The notes below the pieces were generated by a model. It did no database searches, was not told the DNA's origin, and was given only the letters and a program-made list of their open reading frames with translations. This document shows, one piece after another, positions 44,656-60,913 of a stretch of 64,000 nt of DNA. Position 1 is the first letter of the stretch; each line of letters starts with the position of its first letter. The translations under genes were made by a program, and so were the position numbers. The DNA comes from Dictyostelium discoideum (lineage: Eukaryota), in the NCBI GenBank assembly GCA_000004695.1, contig CM000154.2:1408001-1472000 (forward strand), in the 5' to 3' direction.

Positions 44656-45990
44656 TAATAAAGGAATGGATCAATTTTAGATTATTTTGAATCATCACAA
44701 TATAAATCAAGTTTTGAAGAATTTAAAAAAGAAACAGGTACAGAGTTAGATGTTAAAAAGAAAGGATTATTAGAGAAGAAATGGACATCAGTTATTAGAT
44801 TACAGAAAAAGGTATTAGATTTAGAGGCAAAGGTAGCACAATTGGAAGAAGAATTAAATAGTGGAGGAGGTAGAGGAGGTGGTAGAGGTAGAGGTAAAGA
44901 GGATGCATTACCAAGGCCACCAGAGAAACACATATTAACAGGACACAGAAATTGTATCAACAGTGTTAAATTTCATCCATCATTTTCACTGATGGTATCA
45001 GCATCAGAGGATGCAACCATCAAAGTTTGGGATTTCGAGAGTGGAGAGTTTGAACGTACCCTAAAGGGTCATACAAATGCGGTACAAGATATAGATTTCG
45101 ATAAAACTGGTAATTTATTGGCCTCTTGTTCGGCCGATCTCACCATTAAACTATGGGATTTTCAAACATACGATTGCGTTAAAACCTTACATGGTCATGA
45201 TCACAATGTAAGTTGTGTTCGTTTCACCCCATCAGGTGATCAATTGATCTCATCGAGTAGAGATAAAACCATAAAGGTTTGGGAAGCAGCCACCGGTTAT
45301 TGCATTAAAACTTTGGTAGGTCATGAGGATTGGGTTAGAAAAATTACAGTTTCAGAGGATGGCAGTTGTATAGCTTCTTGTTCAAACGATCAAACCATTA
45401 AAACTTGGAATATTGTTAAAGGTGAATGTCTTGCAACTTACAGAGAACATAGTCATGTTGTTGAATGTTTAGCTTTTTCAACTGCAAACATTATAGATAT
45501 ACCAGGTTCTCTCCTATCAACCCCCGAAGGTAAATCAAAAGTTAAACAAGGTCCTGGTGGTAATTTAGTTGGTCAATGTGGTTATTTAGCTACTGGTTCA
45601 AGAGATAAAACTATTAAAATTTGGGAATTGGCTACTGGTCGTTGTTTAGCAACTTATGTAAGTCAATAATTAATTATTAATTATTAAAAAAAAAAAAAAA
45701 AGATCTTTTTTTTAACTAATAATAATAATATTATTTATTAATTTATTTTAAAATAGATTGGTCATGATAATTGGGTTAGGGCTGTAAGATTCCATCCATG
45801 TGGTAAATTTTTATTAAGCGTTGGTGATGATAAAACAATAAGAGTTTGGGATATTGCTCAAGGTAGATGTATCAAAACTATAAATGAAGCTCATACACAT
45901 TTCATATCATGTTTAGATTTTTGTTTACACAATCCGCATATTGCCACAGGTGGAGTTGATGATGTAATAAAAGTTTGGAAATTACAATAA
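44516..45990 (+). CDS. lis1: LIS1 (PAFAH1B1) homologue, a dynein regulator with a LisH domain, a coiled coil and seven WD40 repeats. 419 aa. Exons 44516..44547, 44664..45657 and 45757..45990.
   Basis: [11 protein letters not shown]|[68 protein letters not shown]...[85 protein letters not shown]...[12 protein letters not shown]...[32 protein letters not shown]...[22 protein letters not shown]|[77 protein letters not shown]. Near-colinear identity with metazoan LIS1 ([20 protein letters not shown]..., [67 protein letters not shown]). GTATGT/GTAAGT donors, 1260 nt in frame. Confidence 0.9.
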
Positions 45991-47103: not shown

Positions 47104-49288
47104 AATTAATATTATTAGAATAATTATTATTTTTAATTATATTATTAAAAGATTATTATTTTAAACTTACCCTATAAAAGTTTGATGATGTAATAAATAT
47201 TCTATATCTTTTGTGCCAATTTCTTTAATGATTTCTTGGATTTTAGTATCATTTTTCATTTTACCATTAATATCACTGACAATCTTTCCCATTAAAGAAG
47301 TTGTACGTTTAATGGTTTTATGGTTTTGTTCATCTTCTTTTGGTAATGCTTTACTCAATTCTTTTAATAATAAAGGATATTTACAAAGTCTTTGACATGG
47401 TTTAATTAAAAATGAATGTAGATTGTTTAGTTTACAAATTGGTATTAATTTTTGAAATATTTGTGCTGCTGTTTGATTTGTTAATAAAATTTCCTGTAAA
47501 AATTTATTACAACTATCATGTGATGATAAATATGATCCATATCTTTGAAAACTTTTACTCTATAATATTAAAAATATTATTAATTAGTATTTTTTTTTTT
47601 TTCTTATCTAATAATTGTTTTTTTTTATTTTTCAAAAGACTTACATTAAATAAAAAAACTTCTTCAATATTTGGATATTGATTCTTTTCTAATAATGGAA
47701 TACAATTTAATAACATTGGATAAATTTTTAAAGAAATATGATAAACTTCTTCAAAATTTGAAAAGATTGAAAAAATATCTCTTTTTTCCAATATTTTATA
47801 TTTTACCATTTCCAATGCGGCAAAAAGATAAAAATTAATTGTAATTTCCATATGGTCTAAATAGTCTGCCTCAGTTTCTATGATTTCTTTAACAACCTTA
47901 TTAAAAATGGTTGAATCATTAATATATGGTAATTGTGATCTTCTTGATGGTATTGATTCAAATTTTTGTTGTTGTTCTTCAATTTTTTCAAATATAACAG
48001 ATTTGAAATCAAATTTATTAAAAAGAGATGGTCTTTTTTTTGATACTGTTGCATTTGGAATTAATGTACTAACTGGTTCTTCTGGTAAACTTACAGTTCT
48101 ACCATGTTTTGTTTCTGTAACTTTTAATGTGTCCTTGTTATTATTATTGTTGTTATTATTATTATTATTATTATTAGTAGTAGTATTGTTATTATTATTA
48201 TTGCTATTATTTTTATTTGTTGTTTGATTTTCTTGATCATCTTCATCACTACAAGAACCTCTAAGATTATATGAACTTTTACTAATTACAAATGAACCCC
48301 TATTAGAAGAAGATACACTTTTAAGATTAGGTTCACTATCAAGAGTAGTACCACTCTTTTTGGATAGTTCTGATTCATTTTCATCATCGGTATCAACTCC
48401 ATTATCAAGTAATTTCATAGTGGCAGCTTTTCTAGTAAAAACTCTTTGTCTTCTAGTTCTAACGACAGGTGATATTTGTGATTGACTTAACTCTGATGAA
48501 TCATTACCAAAAACATAGTCATCAAAGTTTTCAAAATTAGGTTTTGATGGTTCAAAATTTAAAAAATTACTTGGAGATTTACCACCACTTCCACTACTAC
48601 TACAACAACTACCACTACTATTTAATGATGATGGAAATATTGTTGGGTTTGTTACATCAAATAGAGTTGTTGACCTTTTTGGTGCTATATTTGAAAATGA
48701 ACTATCGATTGGTTTATTTGCCGATCTCCAACCATTTGATGTATTTAATAAATTTCCAAGAGGTGGTGGCGATGATGACAATGGAGATGTGGAGTTTTGT
48801 AAACCCTCATTATTATTTTGATCATTAAAAGTTTCAATTTTAGAAGGTACTCTTGGTAATGGTTTAGGTGCCATTGTGTGATAATCTTCTTTCTCTTGAT
48901 CGATTGGTATTGGTGGAAGAGGTTTATTTTTATTAAATTCTGGTGAATTAAATTGTGGTGGAGTTGTTGATGTTTTAATATCTTCACCACTATAATTGTC
49001 ATCATAATTATCATCATAATTGTCACCATCTTCTTTTTTTTCAAATGTAATATTAATTGATGGTGGTGTTGTTGGTATATAATTAGTGATTTTTTCATCT
49101 GCACCATCATTCATTAAAAATGCTCTTGGTGGAACAGGTGGACGTTTTGGTTTTGGTAATGGTTCAAGTAATGGCATGGATAAACTTTTTCTTCTTGATC
49201 TTTCTCTATTATTATTTTTGATATTATTGGTATTACTATTATTATTGTTATTGTTATCAAATGATTTTGATAAATTTTTTATTTCCAT
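46380..49288 (-). CDS. RhoGEF (DH-PH) protein, paralogue 1, about 905 aa. Exons 49288..47645, 47559..47171 and 47064..46380.
   Basis: Exon 1 carries an N/P-rich N-terminus with an FTRKAATMKLLDNG motif and the start of the DH domain (FNKVVKEIIETEADYLDHMEITINFYLFAALEMVKYKILEKRDIFSIFSNFEEVYHISLKIYPMLLNCIPLLEKNQYPNIEEVFLFN). An AAT|GTAAGT donor joins to a tattatag acceptor. Exon 2 gives SKSFQRYGSYLSSHDSCNKFLQEILLTNQTAAQIFQKLIPICKLNNLHSFLIKPCQRLCKYPLLLKELSKALPKEDEQNHKTIKRTTSLMGKIVSDINGKMKNDTKIQEIIKEIGTKDIEYLLHHQTFIG (the DH C-terminal half). A GG|GTAAGT donor joins to a tattatag acceptor. Exon 3 gives EGKVKKVNKNGSTSEGTLYLFNQRIVFAEKNSLFNKKATVISLSNISRVCDYDYRYPSGFAIYHNSKK...DEKLKWMNKIEDQIVSERV (PH domain) and ends at 46380. 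2718 nt in frame. It is colinear with paralogue 2, which is unspliced in this region. Confidence 0.8.
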
Positions 49289-52822: not shown

Positions 52823-54575
52823 TTAAATTAAGTCATGTTCTTTTAATAAATCTTCAAGTGAGGAGGCATAATCTTGAACCCATTTTTTACATTGAGCATT
52901 GTATTCTGTAATATTATCACGATAAATTCCAGCTTTTACACTAATGTATATGTAAAAAAAAAAAATAAAAAAAAAATTAAGTTAAGATTTATTTATATTT
53001 TTTTTTCCAAAGAAAAAAAAAAAAAAAAAAATTAAATACTTACACATCTAATGGATCCATTGGATTTGGATTAGATAAAAGTGAATGAATTGAAAGTAAA
53101 ACTTTTTCAGTAGTGATAGCAGCAGACCAGTGGTCTTTTAAAATATCTAAACATATATTACCATCAGTATTGATATTACAATGATAGATACGATTTTCAA
53201 ATCTAACTTTTGGTGGTGCAAATGGATAGATATTTGGAAATTGAACAGAGAGTACGAAATGACCACCTTCATATGGTGTATCAACTACACCTTTCATTAT
53301 AACTTTCCAAACTGAAATATCATTTGGATTTGCATAAAGTGTGAATATTGATGATTTACCATTTTTATTTAATTCTTCAATTGATTTTTGAAAACTGATA
53401 TACTCTCTATAAATTCTTTTACTTGTACCACCAGCACCACTACCATTATTAATATTATTTGAAATTTCATCAAGTTTTTGTTGATCAATTTTTGAAACAC
53501 ATGTTATACCTTTAAGAGCACTATCAACTTTACGAGAGATTGTTTTCAATAAATCACCTTTTAATGATGAAAATTGTTGTTCATTTTCAATTGGGGAAGA
53601 GAATGGAGAGAAGGAATCTCTTTGAGTTGGTATTAATAAAGCTTCACGTTCAAATAGTTCAACACCTTCTTGGGTTGAATTTGCCATGAAACAACTACCA
53701 CCAGTTGCTTTAGTAAGAGTTGATAATGTACTATTATCATCTCTACCAATTGGAATTGCATCCAATATAATATTTAATGGTTTTAAATATTGATAAACAT
53801 TATAAGGATTAATATTTGAGGTATCTTGACCATCAGTTAATAAGAAAATTCTACAACAAACATCTGGTGCTAATTTCTCTTTTGGATTATTTCTATATTT
53901 TTCAATCTCATTTGCTGCATGATAAATTGCTTCATATAATCTTGTAGAACCTTGATTTGCAACAACTTCACCCAATTCTTGTGAAAATGAATCAAAATTT
54001 TTACTAATTTCAAATGCTGTATCAATTTTTTGACCAAATAATACTAAACCAGCAACTACTGGTACTTCAAATGAAACATATTTATCCAACATTGTTTGAA
54101 ATAATGCTTGTGAAACTTCACTTCTATTCATTTCAAGCAAACCTGGTTTTGTTGACCCATTATATGCCACAGCTGTCATTGAACATGAAACATCTAATAC
54201 AATCATATCAATTTGTTTAATTAAAAATTCATTACTATTTGACATTTCAATTTTTTTATATTCCAAATCAATAACATTTTTAGAATTATTAGTAGTAGTG
54301 GTAGTTGTTGTTGTAGTTGTTGTAGTTGTTGGTACTAATTTTGATTGATTAATTAAAATTAATTTTGAATTATCAGGAATTGATAAATCACCAATTGTAT
54401 CGGTTTCAAATAATTCACTATTTTCATATTGTAATTTAAAATTATTATTATTATCTTTGTTTTCCAAATTAACTGCTTTTAAAATTTGATTAATTAATTC
54501 TTGTATTGTTATTTCACTTTTAAATGGAAAATTAATTGTTTTATCAATTGATGGTACTGAAATTATTAAAGTCAT
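52823..54575 (-). CDS. Ubiquitin-like domain, von Willebrand factor A domain and UBC (E2) core fused in one protein of about 549 aa. Exons 54575..53044 and 52940..52823.
   Basis: N-terminus: MTLIISVPSIDKTINFPFKSEITIQELINQILKAVNLENKDNNNNFKLQYENSELFETDTIGDLSIPDNSKLILIN (ubiquitin-like beta-grasp pattern), then a poly-T linker. vWA: MIVLDVSCSMTA...GSTRLYEAIYHA...RIFLLTDGQDTS, with the intact MIDAS residues D-x-S-x-S ... T ... D. UBC core: RIYREYISFQKS...NPNDISVWKVIMKGVVDTPYEGGHFVLSVQFPNIYPFAPPKVRFENRIYHCNINTDGNICLDILKDHWSAAITTEKVLLSIHSLLSNPNPMDPLDV|VKAGIYRDNITEYNAQCKKWVQDYA.... The catalytic Cys (ICLDIL) and the H-x-N of HPN (here HCN) are present. Intron: GT|GTAAGT donor and cattag acceptor, phase 2. 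1650 nt in frame. Confidence 0.75.
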
Positions 54576-54868
54576 ATTTTCTTGTTATTTTTTATTTTTT
54601 ATTTTTTATTTTTTATTTTTTATTTTTTATTTTTTATTTTTTTTTTATTATCTAATTATTTAATGTATATATAAATATTGTTTTGAATTTAAAAATAATT
54701 AAATTAACCATTTTTTTCAACTATTTATACTGAAATTATTTATTAATATATTAAATTTGAAAATAAAAAAAAATCAAGATTTTTTGAAATTCTTAAAAAA
54801 AAAAAAAAACAGTATTAATGACACACTATACAGTCAACATCTGTCACCAAAAATTTTTTTCTCATTTT

Positions 54869-54913: not shown

Positions 54914-55044
<131 letters not shown>

Positions 55045-55357: not shown

Positions 55358-55481
55358 TTAGTTTGAGGTATTATTATTATTATTAATATTATTATTTATA
55401 CATTCACCACTATTTTCTAAACTTGTATTATTTGAGTTTATATTATTTTCATTAATATTATTTTCATTAATATTATTATTG

Positions 55482-55567
<86 letters not shown>

Positions 55568-57522
55568 ATTAATATTAATATCTTTTTCAGAGACATTAAA
55601 TTTATAAGAACCAGTTAAAATCTTTAATATATTAATTGCCTCATCAATATCATTTAACCAAATTAATTTATCTTGATAATTATCACAAGAAAGTTTAATT
55701 GATAATGTGTTAACATTTACAGTTGGTGTTGAATTTGTTGTTGTGGTTGTAGTTGTTGGTGTTGAATTTGTAGTTGTTGTAGTTGTTGGTGGTGTTGATG
55801 ATGTTGTATCATTTGTTGAAGATAAATTATTTTGATTATTATTATTATTATTTTGAATATCATTATCATTTAAATAATTAATTGAAATACCAAATTGAAG
55901 TTCTCTTTCAATATCAATAATTTCTAAAATATTTTTTAAAGGAATAATTTTAACCTTTTTTTTAAAGGTACCTTTTTCAAAGATAATTAAAATTTGACTT
56001 AAAAGGTATAAAGTTACAATTACTTTATTACCTTTTTTTTTTAATTTTTTAATTCTATTTGAAGATTTTAAAAATGTTTGATCACGTAATTGTTGTTCAA
56101 TATCTTTTGTACCAATTTCTTTAACAGTTGATTGAATTTTATTATCATTTGCCATTTTACCATTGATATCATTGACGATCTTTTCCATTAATATTAAAGA
56201 ACGTTGGAATATTTTATGATGTTCTTCAGCCTCCAATGAATCATCTTCTGGTGGTAATGCCTTTTTCAACTCTCTTAATAGCAATGGATATTTACAAAGT
56301 CTTTGACATGGTTTAATTAGGAATGATTGTAGATTCAATTGCTTTGAATGTGGTAACGATTTAACATATTGAAAGATTTGATTCACTACATTGTTTCCAT
56401 CGATTAATGAATTCAAAACTTTGATTGAATGATCATGTGTTGATAAATATGAGCCATATCTTTGGAATGCTTTTGAATTGTAAAGAAAGATCTCTTCAAT
56501 ATTGGGATACTGATTCTCATGGTCCAACACTGGTATAATATTCAATAACATTGGGTAAAGGCGTAACGAAACGTAGTAAAGCTCTTCAATATTTGAAAAG
56601 ATTTGATAGATATCATTTGCTGTCATTAATTTATATTTTGACATTTCCAATGCTGCGAAATAATATAAATTAATTATAACCTCCATTTGATCGATATAAT
56701 CTGCTTCAGTTTCAATGATCTCTTTAATCACCTTATTAAATGATGTTGATGAATTAATTGGTGGTAATAATGATTTTCTACTTGGTTTTTGTGATAATTG
56801 AGTGGTGATTGTATATTGTACATTTATCTTTTCGATTAATATAGTCTTTATATCTAATGTATCTCTTCTTAATGTACCTGATATAAATGATGTTTTCTTT
56901 TTATGTGATGATATAAAATTACTAACTGATAATCCATTATTAGGATTAATATTAATTGAAATATTATTAAAACTTGTATCATTTAATGAATTTGTTGATG
57001 TTGTTGTTGTTGATGCTGATGATGATGCTGATGCTAATGATAATGAACTGTTTGAATTATTTGAATTATTTGAATCATCACTATTAAAACTATTAATTAA
57101 ATCATTATTAATATTTTCATTACTATTGATTGTTAAAAATTCATTTGAGACTGAATTTGATGGCGACATTGATGGTGGTGTTGTTGATGGTGTTGGATTT
57201 GCTGATGATGGTGTTGATGGTGATACTGATGTTGGTGTTGTAGATAACGACAAGGATGAAAAATCTTCACCATTTAATTTCATTGATGCTTGTTTTCTTG
57301 TAAAGGTTCTTTGTCTAAGAGTTCTTAAATCTGATGCCGCTATATTTTGAGAATCTTGAATTGGTGCTATAATTGGTGTTTGTTCAATTACTACTGTTGG
57401 TGTATTGGTTATATTTGCTGTTGATAATGATGTTACTGGTATTGGTGATATATCATTTCTTGGTGCAATTTTTGGTCTTGGTGGCTTAGTTGATGTTGGT
57501 GGTAAAGGTTTATTATTATTAC

Positions 57523-57582
<60 letters not shown>

Positions 57583-57873
57583 ATGCTATGGTTTGTGAAG
57601 GTGGAGTTGTTGGTGGTGTTGTTACATTATTATTTATTGTTGTTGTTGTTGTTGCTGTTGTTGCTGTTGTTGATGATGGTGATAAAGTTTGATATTTTAC
57701 ATTTGTTGAATTTATATTTGTTGATGTTTTTGTAGTTGCTATTGTTGGTGGAGTAGTTAAAGTACCACTAGAACTCCATGGTCTCGGTGGTGGTGCAGGT
57801 TTATCATTTGGTGGTGGTATTGGTAAAGTTTTTACAGAATGTGATCCAAGTTTTGAAATATAATTATTATCAC

Positions 57874-57955
<82 letters not shown>

Positions 57956-58348
57956 GTTATTAGTGGTGGTAGTATTTAGTGCTTCATCTGGATTTGGTGG
58001 TACTGGTGAAGTTGGTCTTGATGGTAATTTTGGTAATGGTGAGGGTGGTCTAGTTGGTAATTGACGTCTTGGTGATGGTAATGGTGATAAAATTGTAGGT
58101 GTAGGAGCAGGTGATGGTGATGGTGATGGTGAGCCTGATATATTATTATTATTATTCTTCTTTATTATAGATGTTGGTGATAATGTATTTGGTGATAAAT
58201 TACTTGGTGTATTATTATTGGCACTACCACTATTATTAATGTTATTTATAGTTGATAGTAAAGGTTTTGGTGGTAGAGAGGGTGATGATGATGAAGATGC
58301 TGTTGATGATGATGATGATGGTTGTTGTTCATTATATTTTGAAATCAT
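55358..58348 (-). CDS. RhoGEF (DH-PH) protein, paralogue 2, at least 996 aa in a single exon. A possible extra 5' exon lies at 58756..58493.
   Basis: The track ORF holds a P/S/T/N-rich N-terminus, an LRQRTFTRKQASMKLNGEDFSS motif, and a DH domain (SFNKVIKEIIETEADYIDQMEVIINLYYFAALEMSKYKLMTANDIYQIFSNIEELYYVSLRLYPMLLNIIPVLDHENQYPNIEEIFLYNSKAFQRYGSYL...FLIKPCQRLCKYPLLLRELKKALP...KIVNDINGKMANDNKIQSTVKEIGTKDIE). It then has a PH-like region (NRIKKLKKKGNKVIVTLYLLSQILIIFEKGTFKKKVKIIPL...) and an N/T-rich tail. It is about 75% identical to paralogue 1 across the DH domain. Confidence 0.8.
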
Positions 58349-59681: not shown

Positions 59682-60342
59682 TTATTTCTTTTTAAAGAAT
59701 TTTTTATTTTGTCTATGAGAATCAATTGAAGAAGGTATTTCCCTTTTATGGAATGATGGCATTGGAATTTTACGATCATTTGTTCTACCACCACGATCTG
59801 GTACTTTACCAACTAAGACTGAACCAGTTAATAGTTGAGAGGAAGCACTATGAGTACTAGTACGAATGATGTGTAATAAATCTTTATGAACATTTTTTAA
59901 ATCGAAAAATGAGTAATGATTGAGTGATGGTAATGCTTGAATGTAGTATCTAACGGATCTGTTGATCTCTTGAAGTTTGTCAGCGATACGTTCACTCCAA
60001 AGTAAAGATTCCACTGTTACGTCTAATCTTTTTTGAAGTACAATACTTCTTTTCTTATAATCTTGGTATAGAGAATCACTCATTTCTTGAATCTCTTGAA
60101 TTTGCTTCTCTGTAAATTCAGTATTCTTTAAAAATGGTTCACTCATAAAATCACTTGGTAAAAGTTTTAATGTCTCTTTAATCTTTTCATTAATTTGATT
60201 AATTGAATTTGAAAAATTATCAAAATTATTAAATTCAACATTAAATAAATCACTTAGTATTTGAATTTGATTAATTATAAAATCTTCATTATTAATTAAT
60301 TCAATATCTTTCATTTCTTCATCATTATTATTATTCTCATTA

Positions 60343-60397
<55 letters not shown>

Positions 60398-60641
60398 TTT
60401 TTAAAAATAATTCTAATTGAAAAGTTTGTAATTGTAAAAATAAAAATTCAATAAGAGATAATCTATTAAAGTATGAATCTTCAATATTTGTAATTTCTTG
60501 ATAATCACATTCTTTTAATAATTTTTCAAATGGTTCATTTAATTGTTGATTAAATTCTCCAGCTTTTTCAATTTTTTCCATTTTTGTTGGCCATTGAATA
60601 TTATAATAAACTGATAATTCTTTACCAATTGACCAAATTAA

Positions 60642-60675
<34 letters not shown>

Positions 60676-60913
60676 GGTTTGGTTTTTATGAAAGTTAATA
60701 GGGGAGGAAAAAAAAAGAAAAAATTTGGCAAGAATAAAAAAAAAAATAAAAATAAAACACATACTGATAAAGAAAATCGGATTTTCCCTTTTCAATAATA
60801 GATTTAAATGATTGTTCAGTTTGATCATTTATCCAATCACATTCTAATCTTAATAATGATATATCTTCAATAATTCTTTGTAATCTAAAACTTTCAAATG
60901 ATTGTTGTTCCAT
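59682..60913 (-). CDS. FAM98-family (DUF2465) protein with a basic RG-containing C-terminus, about 370 aa. Exons 60913..60765 and 60645..59682.
   Basis: MEQQSFESFRLQRIIEDISLLRLECDWINDQTEQSFKSIIEKGKSDFLYQ|ELIWSIGKELSVYYNIQWPTKMEKIEKAGEFNQQLNEPFEKLLKECDYQEITNIEDSYFNRLSLIEFLFLQLQTFQLELF.... This follows the FAM98 N-domain pattern (L..EL.........EF..L.E...LL.E..C.Y........RL.L..FL...L). The C-terminus reads ...GKVPDRGGRTNDRKIPMPSFHKRE. A CA|GTATGT donor in phase 2 joins to an aaaag acceptor. Confidence 0.55.

Follow-up and report, generated by a model that had tools for sequence, protein, structure and literature searches.

We analysed a stretch of 64,000 nt from Dictyostelium discoideum (GenBank assembly GCA_000004695.1, contig CM000154.2, positions 1,408,001 to 1,472,000 of the forward strand), hereafter called the window, in which positions 52,823 to 54,575 carry, on the minus strand, a two-exon gene for a ubiquitin-conjugating (UBC, E2) core preceded by a ubiquitin-like domain (UBL) and a von Willebrand factor type A (vWA) domain with a complete MIDAS (metal ion-dependent adhesion site). 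We consider it fairly probable, from the conservation of its functional residues, that the product is an N-terminally extended, catalytically competent E2 of the UBE2D/E type with built-in partner selection, which might plausibly be targeted to a scaffold or a substrate. Its many relatives make the gene part of a large and widespread protist family.

Structure and splicing of the gene

The locus holds an intact gene on which purifying selection acts. On the minus strand, an open reading frame (ORF) of 511 amino acids extends from 54575 to 53040 with no stop through the UBL, the vWA domain and most of the UBC core; its 3' end specifies ...DPLDV and then reads GT|GTAAGT. Joining 53044 to 52940 in phase two yields a product of 549 amino acids, and this reconstruction agrees exactly with the coordinates and the length proposed in an earlier note on the window, which had been made from the sequence alone (Table 1). 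The window as a whole has a GC content of 21.7% and is AT-rich, Dictyostelium-like DNA.

The splice is real: an intron (GTAAGT...TAG, 89 nt) is annotated at the identical codon in the syntenic ortholog locus L001 (GCA_054859355.1), and the paralogous gene DDB_G0288697 (P0049, locus L002), intronless there, reads GAT CCA CTT GAT GTT GTT AAA GCT GGT (i.e., DPLDVVKAG), which is the sequence given by the proposed join and thus supports it independently. After splicing, the C-terminus can be aligned, ungapped and colinear, with Ubc4/UBE2D to the last helix of the UBC fold, so that the phase-two GTAAGT intron does feed the last UBC helices, as had been claimed. Between the window gene and its syntenic ortholog in L001, the ratio of nonsynonymous to synonymous substitution rates (dN/dS) is 0.18, with a dS of 0.084, indicating purifying selection. 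The positions of the DVSCS, HCN and Cys475 motifs were verified codon by codon on the DNA.

Table 1. Features of the gene and its predicted product, with positions in the window.
Feature	Position	Strand	Basis or remarks
Exon 1	53044..54575	-	codons 1-510 and two bases of codon 511; ATG at 54575..54573; orthologs begin alike (MTLIIS/MPLSI)
Intron	52941..53043	-	phase 2; GTAAGT...TAG; 103 nt; 9.7% GC versus 27% in the coding sequence
Exon 2	52823..52940	-	final 38 codons (last UBC helices, short tail) and stop TAA at 52825..52823; Ubc4 alignment through '...WVQDYA'
UBL (beta-grasp), residues 1-78	54342..54575	-	Rad60-SLD profile, AlphaFold2 topology, ubiquilin-1 profile match; no C-terminal Gly-Gly
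Thr-rich, low-complexity disordered linker, residues 79-117	54225..54341	-	pLDDT 32-42 in the ortholog segment; length and sequence variable among orthologs
vWA domain, residues 118-318	53622..54224	-	complete MIDAS
MIDAS D128/S130/S132 (DVSCS)	54180..54194	-	DNA read codon by codon
MIDAS T211 (in GSTRLY)	53943..53945	-	sequence motif
MIDAS D248 (in LLTDGQD)	53832..53834	-	sequence motif
vWA-to-UBC connector, residues 319-384	53424..53621	-	R319 invariant; short Gly/Ser hinge at its end
UBC core, exon-1 part, residues 385-510	53044..53423	-	UQ_con, identity to Ubc4/UBE2D, Foldseek
UBC core, exon-2 part, and C-terminal tail, residues 511-549	52826..52940	-	splice reconstruction, Ubc4 alignment
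HCN (H465-C466-N467)	53175..53183	-	aligns to H75-P76-N77 of Ubc4/UBE2D
Catalytic Cys475 in ICLDIL	53151..53153	-	aligns to C85 of Ubc4/UBE2D

The UBC core

Residues 395 to 531 match the Pfam profile UQ_con with E=1.2e-42, over profile positions 2 to 139 of 140. For structural comparison, we used an AlphaFold2 (AF2) model of P0001, a full-length ortholog 97% identical to the window protein, which stands in for it and was modelled with 43 family sequences; this three-domain model has a mean predicted local distance difference test score (pLDDT) of 85.6 and a predicted template modelling score (pTM) of 0.70. With the P0001 model as the Foldseek query, the best matches in the Protein Data Bank (PDB) were all Ubc4, UBE2D or UBE2E (41-44% identity to UbcH5/Ubc4; TM 0.92; TM(target) 0.86-0.94), and by these PDB matches alone the core appears closest to the UBE2D/E type.

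Besides the catalytic Cys in its ICLDIL context and the HCN triad, which stands in place of the canonical HPN, the core has N504 and D507 as equivalents of UBE2D N114 and D117 (D507 being the gate Asp), F452 as that of UBE2D F62, and, on helix 1, K386-R387, the basic residues that E1 and the RING/U-box E3s use. These features and the profile, alignment and fold matches bear out the complete UBC core described in the earlier note. The region thus has the full UBC fold together with its catalytic residues and is not a ubiquitin E2 variant (UEV); it is apparently active.

The vWA domain and the connector

The Pfam profile VWA_2 matches residues 124 to 250 with E=3.7e-8, exceeding the curated gathering cut-off, and the domain has the Rossmann-like fold by which vWA domains are defined. 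The metal-ligand pattern, D-x-S-x-S plus a Thr and an Asp, is present in full (D128, S130, S132, T211 and D248) and near-invariant in the relatives, so that the vWA domain is indeed MIDAS-complete, as was held before. Foldseek with the full-length P0001 model matched E2s only, and the vWA domain was modelled apart (window residues 112-392) for its own fold search; BatB, CLCA1, ITIH4 and integrin I domains, that is, extracellular and bacterial MIDAS vWAs, scored equally well against it.

The vWA domain ends in a helix, LFEREALL, in which F308, E309 and E311 are nearly invariant and which runs directly into the connector, where the pLDDT is mostly high and falls only in the Gly/Ser stretch. In integrin I domains, the C-terminal helix of the vWA fold shifts on ligand binding and transmits the signal. 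Beyond the vWA domain come the connector and the UBC core; no ubiquitin-interacting motif (UIM) was found in a Pfam scan of the whole protein at E<=1, nor was any other proteasome motif detected.

The ubiquitin-like domain

When the whole protein was scanned with Pfam, residues 12 to 70 matched the Rad60-SLD/UBL profile under the cut-off (E=3e-4); scanned alone, residues 1 to 82 scored 25.7 bits with Rad60-SLD, against a cut-off of 23.8. In the P0001 model the segment has the UBL topology beta-beta-alpha-beta-beta with a pLDDT of about 93, and a profile built from the family UBLs matches the UBL of ubiquilin-1 (E=2.4e-6), the ubiquilin/Dsk2 UBLs being the nearest. An N-terminal ubiquitin-like fold, first noticed from the sequence alone, is thereby substantiated. 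In the 549-amino-acid product, then, UQ_con and VWA_2 clear their Pfam cut-offs and the UBL does so only when scanned alone; the profile positions give the order UBL, linker, vWA, UBC, as originally described.

No Gly-Gly was found at the end of the UBL (...LILINQSKLVP, followed by the Thr-rich linker), which implies an integral domain and not a conjugatable modifier. The position of the canonical Ile44 patch is occupied by Q or E in the family UBLs. A near-invariant Asp, D68, sits in the loop preceding strand beta5, the same loop that contains E80 of Ytm1, albeit one position earlier (SIPDNSKL in the window protein versus GLSSE(80)ASL in Ytm1), and the Pfam scans found no match of the UBL to the NLE domain. 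We had also considered E54 (in SELF) as the counterpart of the MIDAS-binding Glu of Ytm1 and dropped it, as the Ytm1 sequence places E80 in the later GLSSE loop.

The vWA-UBC family

The vWA domain plus connector, used alone as the query against 1.84 billion cluster representatives, gave 576 matches at E<=1e-3, of which 217 reached E<=1e-10. A UBC core lies downstream in 170 of the 194 relatives retrieved, those without one being mostly short fragments; the vWA domain precedes the UBC core in all 170, and a median of 14.5 residues separates the two profile envelopes. Many members are transcriptome assemblies (Trinity/MMETSP; Amoebozoa, stramenopiles), hence the fusion is present in mRNA. Together with the single ORF in the window, these transcripts and the constant domain order confirm that vWA and UBC belong to one gene. 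To judge from this distribution, the vWA-UBC dyad is an ancient and obligatory pair.

With the whole protein as the query, we recovered 44 proteins of vWA-UBC architecture. The Dictyostelia contribute two or three paralogs per species; the others are from further Amoebozoa (Protostelium, Dracoamoeba, Thecamoeba, Mastigamoeba, Clastostelium), from stramenopile-type sources (Chattonella, Epipyxis, and Durinskia together with its diatom endosymbiont) and from metagenomes. Wherever the alignment column is occupied in this set, the MIDAS residues and H465, N467 and C475 show essentially no variation, and HCN occurs in 38 of 43. The earlier note had singled out the domain combination as unusual and uncharacterised: the latter holds for the literature found, while the architecture is not a one-off. 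A word-indexed search with the vWA profile returned 10 matches, and a further one with P0076 as the query matched nothing beyond itself.

The larger set of relatives shows the same conservation. In the UBC core, the His of the HxN triad is present in 169 of 169 and its Asn in 161 of about 170, while 121 of the 169 (about 72%) have Cys at the middle position and 23 have Pro; HCN is therefore a family signature and not a local mutation. The catalytic Cys is retained in 162 relatives, D507 in 126 and R387 in 154 (the latter two of about 170). For the MIDAS, the D/S/S triplet is conserved in about 142/143, and the Thr and the Asp in 188 and 192 relatives, respectively; R242 is present in 191, D272 in 194 and R319 in 189 of 189.

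The C466 column (window 53178-53180) places a second Cys, conserved in the family, nine residues ahead of the catalytic Cys; it could have a role in redox control or in altering the geometry of the loop. Ile or Leu occupies the position of the catalytic Cys in six of about 168 relatives, suggestive of pseudo-E2s. P0022 (Heterostelium album PPL_02583, 461 amino acids) is annotated with a UBL and a vWA domain and no UBC core, being either a truncated gene model or a case of real UBC loss. P0196 (474 amino acids), from an assembly of the bdelloid rotifer Rotaria sp. Silwood1, matches the vWA profile with E=6e-30 and has UQ_con; it could be a contaminant, a product of horizontal transfer or a genuine member of the family from an animal.

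Variable N-termini and fused E3 modules

What precedes the vWA-UBC pair is variable. The amoebozoan members have a UBL, and the N-termini of the stramenopile and Mastigamoeba proteins (P0023-P0042, about 60-100 residues) have in its place a conserved segment of some 60 amino acids with the motif LFPxK(x3)K(x3)W(x3)L(x3)EFE(x3)DL...W..L.LPLAVK. This segment, for which no Pfam match was found, may represent a small helical domain not described before.

Distant relatives of 800-1900 amino acids add further modules. P0114, P0132, P0135 and P0176 comprise, in this order, a U-box, a ubiquitin-like domain, vWA and UBC; in P0139, the order is vWA, UBC, U-box; P0061 and P0098 consist of PH, ubiquitin, TPR, vWA and UBC; and some of the long relatives have added RING-H2 or SP-RING-like fingers. 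Of the 53 members sampled, a ubiquitin-family domain is present in 16 and a U-box in 15. The UBL-vWA-UBC triad thus extends well outside Dictyostelium, and E3 domains have repeatedly been joined to the module in cis. By their domain content, the relatives of 1100-1900 amino acids look like single-chain E3-E2 assemblies.

Paralogs, orthologs and genomic neighbourhood

In a neighbour-joining tree, the window gene and three orthologs ("D. discoideum" ACTFIW, D. cf. discoideum and D. citrinum, at 97, 90 and 85% identity, respectively) form a clade, type B, apart from the type-A clade that includes DDB_G0288697 of strain AX4. Type-A DDB_G0288697 is 45-52% identical to the window protein; its product (Q54IK3, "Uncharacterized protein") was detected by proteomics in strain AX2 and is listed with the proteins whose levels rise during early (cAMP-pulsed) development (PMC6830349). 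An AX4 ortholog of the type-B gene was not found in the protein collection searched, where AX4 gave the paralog DDB_G0288697 alone, which suggests that type B occurs in only part of the D. discoideum/citrinum complex. The type-B paralog may be missing or unannotated in AX4, or the window may derive from another lineage of that complex, and a dictyBase look-up may miss the gene. By exact look-up, neither the 549-amino-acid product nor nine long ORFs of the window occur in that collection, a weak test for the ORFs given that the neighbouring genes are multi-exon (a window ORF of 996 amino acids, for instance, corresponds to an annotated product of 1191 amino acids in L001).

The window and L001, which is labelled D. 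discoideum, are 91-94% identical at the DNA level over about 13 kb, with the same gene order. Two neighbouring ORFs on the same strand encode RhoGEF (DH) domains (55358-58348 (-), E=2e-37; 47555-49288 (-), E=3e-9), the ORF at 59682-60731 (-) is a DUF2465 protein, and that at 44842-45669 (+) a WD40 propeller; none of these genes has an evident functional connection with the E2. Directly upstream of the ATG, in the intergenic region towards the upstream RhoGEF gene, there is a (TTATTTT)x9.6 array (54585-54651), and some 350 bp upstream of the start codon a perfect (TAT)41 microsatellite (54919-55042).

Proposed mechanism and alternative explanations

The conservation of the residues that serve in charging by E1, in forming the thioester and in contacting RING/U-box E3s, combined with an invariant MIDAS, supports the view of the protein as a competent UBE2D/E-type E2 that selects its own partner. 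The UBC core would be charged with ubiquitin by E1 as usual, and the MIDAS face of the vWA domain would capture a specific protein, be it a substrate, an adaptor or a scaffold, by one of its acidic side chains via a bound divalent cation, thereby keeping the E2~Ub beside its target. The core might then work with a RING or U-box E3 (cis-fused in many distant relatives) or act as an E2/E3 hybrid. Ligand binding could also gate the E2, the LFEREALL helix, mobile in integrin I domains, leading into the connector. The UBL, not being conjugatable, would serve in regulation or docking, possibly by contacting the backside of the E2 or a ubiquitin receptor.

Several observations weigh against this view. 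In the window protein, Cys replaces the canonical Pro in the middle of the HxN triad, and the E3-contact loop is S-A-A versus S-P-A in UBE2D (S-P-A is found in 119 of about 170 relatives). The stramenopile members do without a UBL, which is thus not essential to the core function. The pTM of the P0001 model is at most an indirect hint of domain packing.

An extension that we put forward by analogy, and with considerable doubt, is that the family constitutes a major, unrecognised class of ligand-gated E2s in protists: binding of a carboxylate to the MIDAS would move the vWA helix, the connector with R319 would switch on or position the E2~Ub, the UBL would act as an internal pseudo-ligand or as a backside regulator, and the U-box/UBL/vWA/UBC relatives would be single-chain E3-E2 machines.

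Of the alternatives, the one that comes nearest, though we think it rather unlikely, is an E2 regulated (autoinhibited) in cis, where its own UBL or an acidic loop of the same chain would sit in the MIDAS or on the E2 backside, the enzyme being off or mono-ubiquitinating until a competing ligand arrives. There is precedent in the MIDAS of Rea1/Mdn1, which binds the UBLs of Rsa4 and Ytm1 (PMC6624252). Directly upstream of vWA-UBC, a UBL occurs both in the Amoebozoa and, as an independent case, in long relatives that are very distant (a ubiquitin-family domain in 16 of the 53 sampled), including the four proteins with the order U-box, ubiquitin, vWA, UBC, and the Q or E at the Ile44-patch position makes a non-canonical partner likely. 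A second precedent is the UBL of UHRF1, which binds the backside of UBE2D. The near-invariant D68, in a loop of the Ytm1-E80 type, would fit as well, but this "GI-x-D-N/G" loop is generic in ubiquilin-type UBLs, and the missing NLE-domain match also speaks against such a role, as does the disordered linker of 40 residues between UBL and vWA. The stramenopile and Mastigamoeba members have an unrelated domain of about 60 amino acids instead of the UBL, and yet their MIDAS is still invariant. Since a Ytm1-like Glu is not in register and the stramenopile members lack the UBL, we rank cis-regulation below an E2 that selects an external partner.

That the vWA domain is an assembly module anchoring the E2 in a proteasome or another stable machine, in the manner of Rpn10, TFIIH p44/Ssl1-p34 or MERIT40, we regard as improbable. 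The vWA domain of MERIT40 does pack on the UEV (E2-fold) domains of BRCC45 in BRISC/BRCA1-A. However, assembly-type vWAs (Rpn10, Ku, p34) usually have a degenerate MIDAS, while the invariance of the site in some 190 relatives would argue for metal-mediated ligand binding; the absence of a UIM or other proteasome motif from the Pfam scan also speaks against such anchoring, and the equal scores of BatB, CLCA1, ITIH4 and integrin I mean that the structural match is to the fold and not to a subfamily. Least probable of all is a non-catalytic or decaying gene, i.e., a pseudo-E2 (UEV-like) or a young duplicate drifting towards a pseudogene, in which the fusion would have no special function. HCN instead of HPN could be taken that way, pseudo-E2s do arise in the family, and the failure to find the exact protein or an AX4 ortholog in the protein collection suggests a restricted type-B paralog. 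Yet the ORF is intact, splicing is conserved, the dN/dS value is low, Cys475, His465, Asn467 and D507 are all present, and HCN is the majority state of the family.

Comparison with known systems

The nearest characterised enzymes, UBE2D and UBE2E (UbcH5/Ubc4 and UbcH6), resemble the window protein in the identity and fold of the core (TM about 0.9) and share the Cys in a CLDIL context, the Asn of HxN, the D117 and F62 equivalents and the basic residues (K/R) on helix 1; UBE2E1-3, which are class III E2s, likewise have their extension at the N-terminus. Their extension is a short disordered tail, whereas that of the window protein amounts to 384 residues of folded domains (UBL, MIDAS-vWA, connector), and they have HPN and SPA where the window protein has HCN and SAA.

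UBE2O and BIRC6 are E2/E3 hybrid giants with a UBC core within a chain that bears substrate-selecting domains. They are alike in uniting targeting and catalysis in one chain, but there is no homology beyond the UBC core, their accessory domains are different, and the UBC core of the window protein is C-terminal and apparently of the UBE2D type. TFIIH Ssl1/p44 combines a vWA domain with a RING-like finger, and the plant RGLG ligases combine a copine-type vWA with a RING: in these, the partner of the vWA is an E3-type RING and not an E2, and the identity to the window vWA is 13-15%. In BRISC, the vWA protein MERIT40 is paired with the UEV protein BRCC45, while the partner in the window protein is a catalytic-type E2 on the same chain. 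Rea1/Mdn1 and Rsa4/Ytm1 are separate proteins of ribosome assembly, and the window UBL is ubiquilin-like, not of the NLE type. Unlike Rpn10/S5a (vWA plus UIMs), the window protein has no UIM and a fully conserved MIDAS, and is therefore not an Rpn10-type receptor.

In the databases, the members have generic names ("Ubiquitin-conjugating enzyme E2", "hypothetical", "uncharacterized"), and we found no description of a vWA-E2 family in the full-text literature, an earlier mention in a 2008 survey of the E2 fold being possible; this is not, then, a well-known annotated family, in line with what the earlier note had surmised. What seems new is a conserved vWA-UBC accessory architecture for which we found no functional study; the E2 superfamily is known, and the members were already in databases.

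Implications

E2s are usually seen as generic carriers, with specificity coming from separate E3s. In the vWA-UBC family, a metal-dependent binding domain of the adhesion type is permanently joined to an active-looking, UBE2D-like core, with the MIDAS and the catalytic site nearly unchanged across hundreds of divergent lineages; this implies E2s that recognise their own target or scaffold. If true, this would be a new route to specificity, and possibly to allosteric control, in ubiquitination, and it would assign a first function, within the ubiquitin system, to a cytoplasmic MIDAS domain. Dictyostelium lends itself to genetic work, and the product of the paralog DDB_G0288697/Q54IK3 has been detected and is induced early in development. 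The window gene itself is a routine member of its family, and it is the family as a whole that makes a worthwhile target.

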